64,000 nucleotides of DNA from an uncultured Verrucomicrobiae bacterium (GTDB taxonomy: Bacteria > Chlamydiota > Chlamydiia > Chlamydiales > Rhabdochlamydiaceae). Below the pieces are notes generated by a model that worked only from the letters and a program-made list of their open reading frames with translations, did no database searches and was not told the DNA's origin. The stretch spans positions 1 through 64,000 of the forward strand of contig CAVSUE010000001.1 in the NCBI GenBank assembly GCA_963731265.1, written 5' to 3'. This document shows, in pieces, positions 49,278 through 53,236 of this stretch (the stretch's first letter is position 1; the number at the start of each line of letters is the position of its first letter). A program made the position numbers and the translations under genes.

Positions 49278-50081
49278 TTGGCACAGACAGATGTCACCAT
49301 TAAAGAATTACTAGAAAGCGGTGCGCATTTTGGGCACCAAAGACACCGTTGGAACCCGAAGATGAAACGTTTCATTTTCGAGGAGCGCAACGGAATTTAC
49401 ATTATCGACCTCGCAAAGACAATGCAGCAGATTCGCAATGCTGTCCAAGTAGTCAGAGAAATGGTCTCCAAACGCAAATCGATCCTTTTCGTCGGCACAA
49501 AGAAACAAGCGAAAACCGTCGTCAGAGAATGCGCTGAAGAATGCGGTGAATTTTACGTTTCTGAACGCTGGCTCGGCGGAACTTTGACAAATCTCTCCAC
49601 CATTCGAAATTCCGTCAAAACGCTTGAGCGCATCGAAAAGAAAATCACAACAGGCGGCGATGGATTGACAAAAAAAGAGCTTTCCGTGCTCGGTAAAGAG
49701 CAGACCAAGCTCGACCGTAACCTTTCTGGCATCCGCGCCATGAGAAAATTGCCGGGCTTGCTGATCGCCGTCGATCCAAGCTGCGAGCATATCGCCGTGG
49801 CCGAAGCGAAAAAACTGGGAATCCCGGTGATGGCGCTTGTCGACACCAACTGCAATCCTGACCCTATCGACTTCGTCATTGCATGCAACGACGATGCCTT
49901 GAAGAGCATCAAACTCATCCTTCAGGCTCTCATGCAGGCAGTCATCGACCGCAAAAATGAGCTGAACGTGGGCGTCGCAAAAGGAGATGAGACGGAGCAA
50001 GGACAAGAAGGGCAAGAAGAAGATGAGCAATTCGAATTCGAAATCAAAGATAAAGAAGATCGCGATGGAGAAAAGCTATGA
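49278..50081 (+). CDS. rpsB: 30S ribosomal protein S2
   Basis: GAHFGHQ..RWNPKM, LFVGTKKQA, RWLGGTLTN and DTNCNP. Confidence 0.97.
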   Translation: MAQTDVTIKELLESGAHFGHQRHRWNPKMKRFIFEERNGIYIIDLAKTMQQIRNAVQVVREMVSKRKSILFVGTKKQAKTVVRECAEECGEFYVSERWLGGTLTNLSTIRNSVKTLERIEKKITTGGDGLTKKELSVLGKEQTKLDRNLSGIRAMRKLPGLLIAVDPSCEHIAVAEAKKLGIPVMALVDTNCNPDPIDFVIACNDDALKSIKLILQALMQAVIDRKNELNVGVAKGDETEQGQEGQEEDEQFEFEIKDKEDRDGEKL

Positions 50082-50929
50082 GCGGAAAAGTCAAAGCTGA
50101 AATGGTCAAAGAACTTCGTGATCGCAGCGGAGTGAGCATGGGAAAGTGCAAAGAAGCGCTCGACCAAGCCGGCGGCGACATGAACAAGGCCATCGACATT
50201 CTCCGCAAAACGGGGATGGCCTCTGCTGTCAAGAAGGAAGGGCGTGAGACTAATGAGGGTTTGATCGGTTCTGCGGAAGGACAAAATGCCATTGCTCTCA
50301 TCGAAGTGAATGCAGAGACCGACTTCGTCACTCAGAATGAGAAATTCAAGCAATTTTTAAAGGACGTTGCCCAAGTGGCGGCTGATTCGTCGGCATCTTC
50401 CTTGGAAAGCTTAATGAAGCAGCCTAATCCGAAAGACGAATCCATCACCCTTGAACAATACCGTGCGCTTGTCATTCAAAGCTTAGGCGAGAACATTCAA
50501 GTAAAACGTCTTTCTGTTTTGCCCAAGAGTTCTGACATTTCGGTCGGGCTCTATTCTCATATGGGCGGAAAGATTGTCGTCGCTGTTTTGTTGTCCGGGG
50601 GCGCAGGCCAAGAAGCTCTTGCCCGAGATATCGCGATGCACGTCGCTGCGGAATCTCCCGAGTATCTCGGTCCTGAAGACGTTCCTGCGGATGTGCGCGC
50701 TAAAGAAGAAGAAATTGCCCGCAGCCAAATGAAAGGAAAACCGGAAAATATCATTGAAAAGATCGTCGAAGGGAAAGTCAAAGCATTCTGCGATGAAGTG
50801 TGCTTGACCTGCCAAAAGTATGTGAAAGACAATACTATCACAATCTCTCAGCTTCTTGAAAAAGAAAGCAAGCGATTGGGCAAACAAATTAGCATCAATG
50901 CTTTTCATCGCTGGAAAGTGGGAGGATAG
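50078..50929 (+). CDS. tsf: elongation factor Ts
   Basis: VKELRDRSG..MGKCKEAL, EVNAETDFV and IAMHVAA. Confidence 0.97.
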   Translation: MSGKVKAEMVKELRDRSGVSMGKCKEALDQAGGDMNKAIDILRKTGMASAVKKEGRETNEGLIGSAEGQNAIALIEVNAETDFVTQNEKFKQFLKDVAQVAADSSASSLESLMKQPNPKDESITLEQYRALVIQSLGENIQVKRLSVLPKSSDISVGLYSHMGGKIVVAVLLSGGAGQEALARDIAMHVAAESPEYLGPEDVPADVRAKEEEIARSQMKGKPENIIEKIVEGKVKAFCDEVCLTCQKYVKDNTITISQLLEKESKRLGKQISINAFHRWKVGG

Positions 50930-50958
50930 TCCGCGTGCTCACCTCTCAAGCAGCTTAC

Positions 50959-51189
50959 ATACCGCGCGCAGGAAGGTTTTGTGAGTTTGGACTCTGCGAG
51001 GCAAAGCAAAATCGAAGCGATGCGGCCGAACGAGAAAGACAATTCCCGAATAGGGCTGCAACCATTAAAGGATGGTTGCAGGTCTCCTCGGAGTTCAAAC
51101 TCCGAAGAGACTGGAACGGCTGAAGAGGAGGATCGATTTTGCAAAGCGGCAGCCAGTCCAAATTCACAAAACCTGACGGAGCGCGGTAT
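50959..51189. mobile_element. 231-bp palindromic element inserted in the 5' end of pyrH
   Basis: Inverted ends ataccgcgc...aggttttgtga.tttggact / agtccaaattcacaaaacct...gcgcggtat; internal hairpins at 51056-51081 and 51082-51111. Confidence 0.88.
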
Positions 51190-51891
51190 AAGAGAGTCCT
51201 TCTGAAACTTTCAGGAGAAGCGCTGATGGGCGAGCAGAAATTTGGCGTTGAGCACCCAGCTTGTCAGCAGATAGCTCAAGCGATCAAAGAGGTCCACTGT
51301 CTTGGCGTCCAAATGGGAATTGTGGTCGGGGGCGGAAATATTTTCCGCGGCAGCCAGGCGGCCAGCTTCGGTTTTGCCCGAACGCCCGCCGACCATATTG
51401 GCATGTTGGCGACGACCATCAACGGTCTCGTCCTTCAGCAAACTTTGGCTAGTCTTGGGATAGAAAGCCGGGTCATGAGCGCCTTAAATATAGATCAGAT
51501 CGTCGAGCCATTCCATTGGGGCCGCGCCCTGCATTCGCTGCAAAAGGGGATCCCCGTCATCTTCGTCGGAGGAACGGGCAATCCTTACTTTACGACCGAT
51601 TCCGCAGCAGCCCTTCGCGCCAGTGAAATTCAAGCTGAAATTCTACTCAAAGCGACAAAAGTTGACGGCATTTTCAGCGAAGACCCAAAAAAAAATCCTC
51701 AAGCGATCAAATTCGACCGCCTCACTTACTCAGAAGTTCTCGCAAAGCAATTGAATGTGATGGACGCCACCGCGATCGCTTTGTGCCGCGAGAGCCAAAT
51801 ACCCATTTGTGTCTTTAATTTATTTGAACAGGGAGCGATGCTCAAAGCTGTTTGCGGACAGCCAAAAGGCTCGCTTGTCATGGGAGGTTAA
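51139..51891 (+). CDS. pyrH: UMP kinase (TTG start supplied by the inserted element; ancestral start GTG 50935)
   Basis: KRVLLKLSGEAL, VGGGNIFRG, GTGNPYFTTDSAAALRA and VMDATA. Confidence 0.93.
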   Translation: MQSGSQSKFTKPDGARYKRVLLKLSGEALMGEQKFGVEHPACQQIAQAIKEVHCLGVQMGIVVGGGNIFRGSQAASFGFARTPADHIGMLATTINGLVLQQTLASLGIESRVMSALNIDQIVEPFHWGRALHSLQKGIPVIFVGGTGNPYFTTDSAAALRASEIQAEILLKATKVDGIFSEDPKKNPQAIKFDRLTYSEVLAKQLNVMDATAIALCRESQIPICVFNLFEQGAMLKAVCGQPKGSLVMGG

Positions 51892-51893
51892 CA

Positions 51894-52448
51894 ATGACTA
51901 CAGTTACGGAACAGACAAAAGTGAAAATGCAAGCTGCGCTTGACCATTTTAAAACCGAGCTCAAAAATTTACGTTCCAACCGCGCGAATACGGCAATGCT
52001 CGATGGCGTCCTCGTCGAGGCTTATGGTTCGCAAATGCGCATCAAAGAACTTGCCAACGTCACAGTTCCCGAGCCCCGGCAAATCCTTATCAGCCCGTTT
52101 GATCCTCAGACTTCCGCTGCGATAGCAAAAGGTATTGAAAAAGCAAATTTGAATCTTCAGCCCGTTGTGGAAGGACAGGTCATCCGTATTAATGTCCCTC
52201 CCATGGATGAGTCCATGCGCAAGCAGATCGTCAAACAAGGTAAGCAAAAGGCCGAAGATTCCAAAATTGCCCTCCGTGACATCCGCCGTAAGAATAATGA
52301 ACTTGTCCGCAAGCAAAAGGCCGATGGCCTGGTTACAGAAGACGTCATGAAAAAAGAAGAAAAGGGCATCCAGGAGCTCACAGATAAATTCTGCAAAGAA
52401 GTCGATGACCTTTTCACCGCGAAGGAAAAGGAGATTATGACGGTCTAG
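51894..52448 (+). CDS. frr: ribosome recycling factor
   Basis: LRSNRA...VEAYGS, I.PFD and RDIRR motifs; follows pyrH. Confidence 0.96.
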   Translation: MTTVTEQTKVKMQAALDHFKTELKNLRSNRANTAMLDGVLVEAYGSQMRIKELANVTVPEPRQILISPFDPQTSAAIAKGIEKANLNLQPVVEGQVIRINVPPMDESMRKQIVKQGKQKAEDSKIALRDIRRKNNELVRKQKADGLVTEDVMKKEEKGIQELTDKFCKEVDDLFTAKEKEIMTV

Positions 52449-52673: not shown

Positions 52674-52748
52674 GGCCCCATCGTCTAGCCTGGCCTAGGA
52701 CACCAGATTTTCATTCTGATAACAGGGGTTCGAATCCCCTTGGGGTCA
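52674..52748 (+). tRNA. tRNA-Glu(TTC)
   Basis: Acceptor ggcccca/tggggtc, anticodon TTC, GGTTCGAATCC. Confidence 0.95.
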
Positions 52749-52769
52749 CATTTTACTACGTGTCCATTC

Positions 52770-52842
52770 GAGACTTTAGCTCAGTCGGTAGAGCATCTCA
52801 CTTTTAATGAGAGGGTCGATGGTTCGAGTCCATCAAGTCTCA
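52770..52842 (+). tRNA. tRNA-Lys(TTT)
   Basis: Acceptor gagactt/aagtctc, anticodon loop CTTTTAA, GGTTCGAGTCC. Confidence 0.95.
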
Positions 52843-53236
52843 ATCCCAAAAAAATACCCAGCCAAAGGCTGGGTTTTTTTTTGGGATTGAGACTTGAGTG
52901 AGCCACGGTGTGGCTCATGTATGGACTCGAAGTGAAGCGGCCTTGAGCCGCGAACCGGACGGGCTATCAAGCAATCCCAAAAAAATACCCAGCCAAAGGC
53001 TGGGTTTTTTTTTGGGATTGAGACTTGAGTGAGCCACGGTGTGGCTCATGTATGGACTCGAAGTGAAGCGGCCTTGAGCCGCGAACCGGACGGGCTATCA
53101 AGCAATCCCAAAAAATACCCAGCCAAAGGCTGGGTATTTTTTGGGATTGAGACTTGAGTGAGCCACGGTGTGGCTCATGTATGGACTCGAAGTGAAGCGG
53201 CCTTGAGCCGCGAACCGGACGGACTCCCAAGTCTCA
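52841..53236 (+). repeat. three tandem ~131-bp structured tRNA-linked repeats
   Basis: Units start at 52841, 52972 and 53103 and are near-identical; the array ends in caagtctca, the tRNA 3' end. Confidence 0.92.

Follow-up and report, generated by a model that had tools for sequence, protein, structure and literature searches.

The window analysed here, the first 64,000 nucleotides of contig CAVSUE010000001.1 from an uncultured member of the Rhabdochlamydiaceae (Chlamydiales), carries a palindromic insertion of 231 bp within pyrH, the gene for uridine monophosphate (UMP) kinase. On sequence comparison, this insertion is a member of a lineage-restricted family of palindromic elements in one Chlamydiales genus, most of which are a multiple of three nucleotides (3n) in length, and the reading frames of the host genes indicate that the family is tolerated as one open phase is translated as an extra peptide. 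That the element, its family and the uninterrupted (empty) sites in relatives are real is, from these comparisons, virtually certain, and the sequence evidence for a habit like that of the Rickettsia palindromic elements (RPE), namely 3n lengths, an open phase, empty sites and hosts that include PriA, DnaX, RecC and LpxK, is strong. An RPE-like family in the Chlamydiales is a more valuable result than the mechanism proposed below for pyrH. The pyrH copy is, judged by its reading frame, an exception in the family, as it lies in the closed phase.

In-frame copies of the element within genes

The genome of the window (G000) was compared with 18 other genomes of the same genus (G001-G018). Within G000, the 231-bp element has 31 BLAST matches at E <= 1e-3, itself included, and profiles of its ends identified 17 left ends and 15 copies with both ends, bearing out the expectation of other genomic copies in a preliminary description of the window that was made from the sequence alone. 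The conserved ends measure ~75 nt (left) and ~60 nt (right) and enclose an interior of interchangeable modules, with copy lengths of 171-357 bp in G000 and of 168-357 bp when copies from G001 and G005 are added. The element family is present in 13 of the 18 other genomes (76 matches in G001 and 36 in G005) and in one of four genomes of other genera of the same taxonomic family, and was found in none of 115 genomes of the order's other families, for which at most six candidates were scored per genome and one genome went unscored.

A length of 3n is seen in 12 of the 15 copies in G000 (binomial p 2.9e-4), or in 10 of 13 when counted by distinct length (p 1.6e-3), both figures being rough since the copies are related. 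Phase 1 (A/TAC CGC..., giving the peptide YRAQEGFVNLDSARQSKIE...SPNSQNLTERGI) is free of stops in eight of the 15, and phase 0 (ATA CCG..., the phase read in pyrH) contains at least one stop in all 15. Six copies are intragenic in the open phase, with the host frame running through the element, in keeping with the RPE-like insertion into conserved genes that had been proposed from the window. Each is read through in phase 1, and the element lies after residue 10 of PriA, after residue 17 of RNase R and after the first codon of a FolC-like Mur ligase, or 38, 12 and 6 residues before the end of LpxK, NusB and aspartate carbamoyltransferase (PyrB), respectively. Empty sites were found in relatives for all six, and in G003 for five; for folC the G003 contig stops short of the junction, and the short N-terminus is present in G002 and nine other genomes. 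Excision of the element restores the length of the relative's gene at lpxK, nusB, pyrB and rnr, and a target-site duplication is absent at these four and at pyrH; at priA, excision leaves one codon fewer.

To these 15 copies were added 37 from G001 and G005, giving a comparison set of 52; the 37 are those whose ends could be paired from the list of similarity matches, and are a sample chosen by similarity rather than at random. Their lengths are 3n in 24 and not 3n in 13. Among the 24, 19 lie in a same-strand frame that stays open for at least 60 codons beyond the element (17 in phase 1 and two in phase 0), compared with none of the 13, an association between 3n length and an open host frame with a Fisher probability of 2.4e-6 in this sample. 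Seven of the 19 have at least 84 open codons on both sides, and at least 10 copies are clearly internal or C-terminal. Pfam families of the hosts include RecC, DnaX, an FtsX-type permease, TsaE, an ABC ATPase, an outer-membrane efflux protein and a short-chain dehydrogenase, as well as a class IV aminotransferase whose domain is cut in two by the element; four of the 16 frames scanned matched no Pfam family. In addition, the element peptide was detected at E <= 1e-3 in 49 proteins in a search of 1.84 billion representative proteins, and all ten database proteins that were retrieved (227-723 residues) contain it, in N-terminal, internal or C-terminal positions.

The 3' end of the element can also come to lie directly before a gene, with the layout GGAG, 6 nt and then a start codon. 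The 357-bp copy at 349892-350248 of G000 occupies exactly the space between a native Shine-Dalgarno (SD) sequence (AAGGGG, which overlaps the upstream stop codon) and the start codon (ATG) of a gene for a tetratricopeptide repeat (TPR) protein of 131 residues, which is 84-95% conserved in five relatives, all with an empty site. This ATG now adjoins the element end GGGAGCAGTAT (...CCGGGAGCAGTAT), with GGGAG 6 nt before it, and on this layout the element end must now act as the ribosome-binding site of the TPR gene. The TPR protein may be akin to type III secretion chaperones. At folC, the element end GGAGCGCGGTAT and the next G together make an ATG, 6 nt after GGAG, and a further copy (1557161-1557454) ends 3 nt upstream of the ATG of an ABC-F gene. 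The dedicated open phase and the 3' end resembling a ribosome-binding site point beyond what the preliminary description had proposed.

Several further observations concern individual copies. A 171-bp copy in G005 is located in phase 0 where a short-chain dehydrogenase gene begins (minus strand), has no phase-0 stop and begins with ATG rather than ATA; it may supply the start codon of the dehydrogenase and an N-terminal extension of 57 residues. PriA of G006 has a different insertion of ~60 residues at the N-terminal position occupied by the element in G000, which may be another repeat family at the same spot. A subfamily in G001 with the ends ATACGGCGCG...CGCGCCGTAT is 170 bp long (not 3n) and has stops in all forward phases, and none of its seven copies is embedded in a long open frame, which suggests a non-coding branch of the family. 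Two copies in G000 (455557-455830 and ~1542800-1543019) are broken by a small second hairpin of the GTTGCAGAAATTATTCCAAAA-TTTTTGCAAC type, which looks like a nested smaller repeat or the end of an insertion sequence (IS). In a 2.3-kb region of G000 (846263-848522), murB and the gene after it are flanked by two like-oriented copies, in the order nusB-element-murB-gene-element-folC.

The pyrH copy and its possible restart signals

The gene order in the window is the usual tsf-pyrH-frr (Table). The tsf-pyrH junction was compared in 12 congeners (G002, G003, G006, G007, G009-G012, G014, G015, G017 and G018), G013 being left out as its pyrH is in pieces with stops in a low-completeness assembly. 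All 12 have an empty site and none has the element, so that the idea of a palindromic element that is mobile and has an empty-site allele in relatives has held up; the coordinates first given for the signals within 50935-51200 (GTG, TGA, AGGAGG-N7-TTG, the inverted ends and the length of 231 bp) were likewise all correct. In the short form of the congeners, the start codon comes just past the tsf stop, and 7-10 codons further on stands (K)(R/K)xLLKLSGE. The termini of the pyrH element, ATACCGCGC/GCGCGGTAT, are inverted repeats, and excising its 231 nucleotides (3 x 77) gives GTG-LTSQAAY/KRVLLKLSGE. The junction in G003, the closest relative, reads GTG CCC ACC TCT CAA GCA GCT TAT / AAG AGA; the window minus ATAC...GTAT has the same length, and a synonymous TAC/TAT difference is the only one that remains. 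By this alignment, the insertion into pyrH is precise, after codon 8 and without target duplication, and in the genomes sampled it is younger than the split from G003. Models with a TA, AT or ATA target duplication failed at pyrH and lpxK, where only exact excision of ATAC...GTAT fits the relatives, and an IS200/IS605-like insertion 3' of TTAC, considered on account of the left flank cTTAC at pyrH, was rejected as the left flanks of other copies are unrelated.

Table. Features of the tsf-pyrH-frr locus and of the insertion, in window coordinates
Feature	Position	Strand	Remarks
rpsB	49278-50081	+	Its stop, TGA, overlaps the tsf ATG
tsf (elongation factor Ts), upstream gene of the operon	50078-50929	+	Pfam EF_TS E 2.3e-61; stop TAG 50927-50929
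Native pyrH SD, GGAGG, 9 nt before GTG 50935	50921-50925	+	Kept in empty sites of relatives
Leader open reading frame, 62 codons: GTG, 7 native codons, 54 element codons (phase 0), TGA	50935-51123	+	No Pfam family matched
Palindromic insertion element, 231 bp, ATAC...GTAT	50959-51189	+	Empty sites, paralogues, fold
Open phase of the element, 76 codons, YRAQEGF...TERG	50960-51187	+	0 stops; out of the pyrH frame, unusable here
In-frame TGA closing the leader	51121-51123	+	GCTGA at the same place in folC, priA and pyrB copies
Element-borne SD, AGGAGG	51126-51131	+	Mostly unpaired in predicted fold
Proposed re-initiated pyrH: TTG, 16 element codons, 233-codon body, TAA; 250 aa	51139-51891	+	Start inferred
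Conserved PyrH body	51190-51888	+	96% identity to G003
frr (ribosome recycling factor), next gene	51894-52448	+	RRF E 1.6e-54; SD within pyrH 3' end

The pyrH copy is 3n in length, which keeps the downstream frame, but its insertion point falls between two codons, shifted by one base from the open phase, so that it is read in the phase with a stop. As a result, the PyrH frame is interrupted between its native GTG (50935) and the body by the TGA at 51121. The body was readily identified: the 250-codon open reading frame from TTG 51139 matches Pfam AA_kinase (E 7.7e-33), TIGR02075 (308 bits, cut-off 243.9) and, as the best PDB uridylate kinase, 1ybd (E 1.8e-73), and its nearest named relatives are from Chlamydiales metagenome-assembled genomes, the top match being a Candidatus Rhabdochlamydia assembly at 72%. 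The TTG begins 15 nt after the leader stop, 7 nt after the AGGAGG, and is the only canonical in-frame start after the TGA that retains the KLSGE motif. The division of pyrH into a short leader and a body preceded by element-borne AGGAGG-N7-TTG, as first described, is thus present in the sequence.

One rival explanation is an assembly or sequencing artefact, in which a repeat was misplaced in pyrH or an indel or base error created the stop. Repeats are a common source of mis-assembly, and contigs from public runs, among them X1 (DNA), X2 (a soil RNA library), X3 and X4, of which the best holder shares 0.33 of the sampled words, leave the left junction and position 51121 uncovered, uncovered stretches counting neither way. 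However, an independent X2 contig of 151 nt bridges the junction of element and pyrH on the right (51134-51284, reaching 56 nt to one side and 95 nt to the other, with four differences), and an X1 DNA contig begins at 51186 with GTAT, the end of the element, and not with the empty-site sequence, and has no differences over 311 nt. Moreover, the flanks align to G003, the copy aligns with its paralogues without gaps on both sides of the TGA, and the TGA is common to three of those paralogues. A base-calling error at 51121 is, on these alignments, unlikely, and an artefact of any of these kinds is very improbable. The other public matches add little at this site: X3 contigs and an X4 piece at 51151-51190 diverge from the window and come from other copies of the family, an X4 piece at 50700-50890 matches tsf only, and metagenome contigs scanned for the right junction in its filled form, by exact 25-mer and by the element end with degenerate PyrH codons, gave no matches.

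The stop could alternatively be read through or recoded at a useful frequency, giving full-length PyrH with an insertion of 77 residues after residue 8. This would fit an element that keeps the frame (231 = 3n) and has a single stop in this phase, and PriA, RNase R and the FolC-like ligase each tolerate an N-terminal copy of the family. Against this, the genome uses TGA as an ordinary stop, as at the end of rpsB, the sequence bears no mark of a recoding site, and no Rfam element such as SECIS was matched at E <= 1; standard levels of stop-codon readthrough are low. Useful readthrough is accordingly improbable. Removal of the element at the RNA level, either intron-like or by processing and ligation, would restore the native pyrH message, and the one feature that speaks for it is the strong hairpin. 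No Rfam family, intron and ribozyme models included, matched within 50959-51189 at E <= 1, and nearby there are only three tRNAs and chance matches to microRNA models; RNase III acting on the hairpin would sever the message without rejoining it. Furthermore, the X2 contig from the RNA library still has the element attached to pyrH, and a junction that skips the element was absent from two RNA runs, leaving RNA-level removal with hardly any likelihood.

Re-initiation of PyrH at the element's own SD and TTG is the best-supported mechanism and, judged from the layout, is somewhat more probable than otherwise. The native SD and GTG being intact, ribosomes would translate the leader and melt the long hairpin, and would stop at 51121, over the second SD and 15 nt before the TTG. 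The same ribosomes, or fresh 30S subunits on the exposed AGGAGG, would then initiate at TTG 51139, and freeing this codon would probably need helicase action or trailing ribosomes. In the resulting PyrH, 17 residues encoded by the element would replace eight native ones. Alignments with uridylate kinases in the PDB start at query residues 15-17, and one homologue has 47 residues ahead of that point; since this homology begins past the element-encoded part, the replaced N-terminus is outside the conserved fold. From this arrangement we infer probable initiation at the TTG, its coupling to the leader and an active product.

The predicted structure of the element is consistent with part of this scheme. 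A stretch of 281 nt has a predicted fold of -126.3 kcal/mol (z = -9.47), equalled by none of 200 shuffles, in the form of one long hairpin with the AGGAGG in an internal loop (probabilities unpaired 0.82, 0.91, 1.0, 0.3 and 1.0). The question had been raised whether copies elsewhere keep the series TGA-AGGAGG-TTG; all three occur in one of the 52 copies, and the series is not a design of the family. Downstream of their last phase-0 stop, three of the 52 (pyrH, folC and lpxK) have a phase-0 TTG at this position, and the full AGGAGG with an in-frame TTG is found in the pyrH copy alone, as the folC copy has no SD and the lpxK copy has GAAGGA. The AGGAGG itself is at the same place in the nusB copy, other copies having GAGAAGGA, GAAGAGGA or none, and ATTTTGC occurs in four other copies, so that both motifs are within family variation and need not have been selected after insertion.

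Possible use of pyrH in G000 and its loss in congeners

The principal alternative is that pyrH has been knocked out and that this is tolerated, with UMP kinase dispensable, the intact frame reflecting a young insertion, and the SD and TTG accidental, as a by-product of the element's codons for acidic residues (GAG GAG GAT) and of its stem. This is a possibility to be taken seriously, though it falls short of being probable. Much of its case comes from the congeners and weighs against a re-initiated and functional PyrH. In G001, G005 and G008, the assemblies of which are 93-95% complete and in two of the three cases single contigs, frr comes directly after tsf, and no match to the PyrH family over the cut-off was found; in G004, only residues 1-45 and 207-233 remain. 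The preliminary description had treated pyrH as essential, which does not hold for this genus, and the argument that the gene must be rescued is weaker as a result. In addition, G001 and G005 keep pyrB, pyrE and pyrF without pyrH. Within G000, which has no second pyrH, Thr101Ile and Pro122 (for Ile/Val) replace residues that are invariant in the other 11 congeners, these being two of four replacements specific to its PyrH. Synonymous and non-synonymous changes on the pyrH branch number 5 and 6 in G000 versus 7 and 6 in the sister G003, with 14 ambiguous, showing no difference; as a test of use, such branch-specific counts are uninformative.

The structure and the motifs can be read in the same direction. 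The TTG lies in a predicted stem, as was first noted, and all of 51139-51141 is paired in the -126 kcal/mol hairpin (probability unpaired 0.0); holding 51106-51136 single-stranded, as the footprint of a terminating ribosome, leaves it paired in the fold model. The occurrence of GAGGAGGAT in the nusB copy, and of ATTTTGC in four others, makes the signals look like normal variation of the family. Finally, if all six other intragenic insertions are taken as absent from G003, a recent burst would follow, and the intact frame could be a matter of youth.

Against a tolerated knock-out stands, first, the body itself, whose 233 codons contain no stop or frameshift and keep all motifs of the family. 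The relatives that lost pyrH excised the gene cleanly, rather than retaining 0.7 kb of untranslated sequence before frr, and the full SD with an in-frame TTG is confined to one of the 52 copies. Moreover, the insertion is shared with another strain: a second X2 contig covers 51271-51401 with five differences, and the contig across the junction implies that a strain ~3% different also bears the insertion. The pyrH differences listed for X2 are three synonymous changes and one conservative Ser-to-Asn replacement (Asn being present in other congeners at that site), and the chance of at least three of four being synonymous under neutrality is 0.05 (binomial). The X2 evidence is thin: five of nine differences are listed, the contig across the junction carries just one of the listed pyrH differences, and DNA may be present in an RNA library, so that it is no proof of transcription. 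PyrH re-initiation stays the preferred reading, at somewhat better than even odds.

The losses of pyrH are of interest in their own right. This gene is usually treated as essential, and its absence from congeners that keep pyrB, pyrE and pyrF points to another route from UMP to uridine diphosphate (UDP), or to another means of obtaining UDP, in the genus. The nucleotide transporters Ntt1 and Ntt2 are listed as chlamydial core genes (PMC9723776). G000 and G008 have extra paralogues of the adenylate kinase family, and such paralogues are candidates for the enzyme that replaces PyrH in G001 and G005. In G001, tsf aligns in four pieces in different frames, and similar breaks occur in several genes of G013 and G018; the breaks in G001 tsf are either frameshifts or errors of long-read assembly.

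Relation to known repeats and to coupled genes

The RPE were reportedly described by Ogata et al. (Science, 2000, volume 290, page 347), and they are not known to leave a target duplication. In-frame palindromic repeats in housekeeping genes are familiar chiefly from Rickettsia. Passages on them in two papers describe a conserved open reading frame in each element and frequent in-frame insertion in unrelated genes, and state that in-frame palindromic repeats reach an unusually high frequency in Rickettsia (PMC10969869, PMC3733652). As in the RPE so described, the elements reported here are short palindromic repeats of an obligate intracellular bacterium, with many copies in frame in unrelated housekeeping genes and a conserved open reading frame translated as an extra peptide; the traits that mark the RPE-like kind in those passages are thus found here. 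In contrast, their host belongs to a different phylum (Chlamydiales) and, as far as the RPE are described there, they differ in being modular (168-357 bp, with interchangeable inner modules between conserved ends), in a 3' end that doubles as a ribosome-binding site, and in a pyrH copy that is out of the open phase and splits its host gene rather than extending it. The Chlamydiales family is therefore best filed as an analogue of the RPE and not as a member, being likened by behaviour and not by sequence. No report of such elements in the Chlamydiales was found in open-access papers and preprints. As a family that looks unrelated, it offers a second, independent system for movement without target duplication and for the tolerance of insertions by proteins.

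Bacterial MITEs (miniature transposable elements with inverted repeats), such as Correia/NEMIS of Neisseria, ERIC, RUP and BOX, are characterised in the relevant passage of PMC10969869 as small non-autonomous repeats that alter the expression of neighbouring genes. Like the MITEs of that account, the Chlamydiales elements have terminal inverted repeats (ATACCGCGC/GCGCGGTAT at pyrH), a small size (168-357 bp), no transposase and a strong potential to form hairpins, and are located at gene ends and sometimes within genes, carrying open reading frames and generating fusions. Classical MITEs have a target-site duplication and a parent IS, whereas the Chlamydiales element has no target duplication; for a parent IS, the end profiles matched short copies only, in a search that did not extend systematically to ends enclosing a transposase. 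Supply of a promoter by the pyrH element was not seen: a scan for promoters and terminators gave no sites within the element and no terminators, and one promoter-like match within tsf (50804-50833; 0.5 expected).

Translational coupling, or termination and re-initiation between adjacent cistrons, occurs in bacterial operons. The layout expected of it, an upstream stop within ~20 nt of the start with an SD between them, is present at pyrH, where the stop precedes the downstream start by 15 nt and the start is sequestered in predicted structure. Unlike ordinary coupled cistrons, the two parts appear to be halves of one ancestral gene, with the restart signals apparently brought by a mobile element. 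The product likewise would combine familiar and unfamiliar parts: it resembles bacterial PyrH (TIGR02075; PDB 1ybd and 2bne) in its full-length body and tsf-pyrH-frr context, but its native start is severed from the body by a stop and its N-terminal residues are predicted to be foreign. The pyrH copy is thus a case of a mobile element that breaks a gene and yet carries signals that could restart it.

It can be suggested, tentatively and as an idea that is more doubtful than probable, that the family is gene-safe in several ways, through its 3n lengths, a stop-free phase with a hydrophilic peptide, a 3' ribosome-binding site and, in variants, an internal SD and TTG. If true, such a design would let the family colonise both coding sequence and gene starts in a compact intracellular genome, and the pyrH copy, with its leader and re-initiated body, would illustrate a third way for genes to tolerate it, in addition to read-through in the open phase and replacement of the ribosome-binding site. 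Gene prediction will place starts wrongly or split genes where these elements occur.

Elsewhere in the window, 52841-53222 holds 2.9 tandem copies of a 131-bp unit, with 98% matches. Rfam microRNA models match these units by chance only, and each unit holds a long hairpin flanked by A/T. The tandem repeat begins at the 3' end of tRNA-Lys (52770-52842), which itself follows tRNA-Glu (52674-52749).

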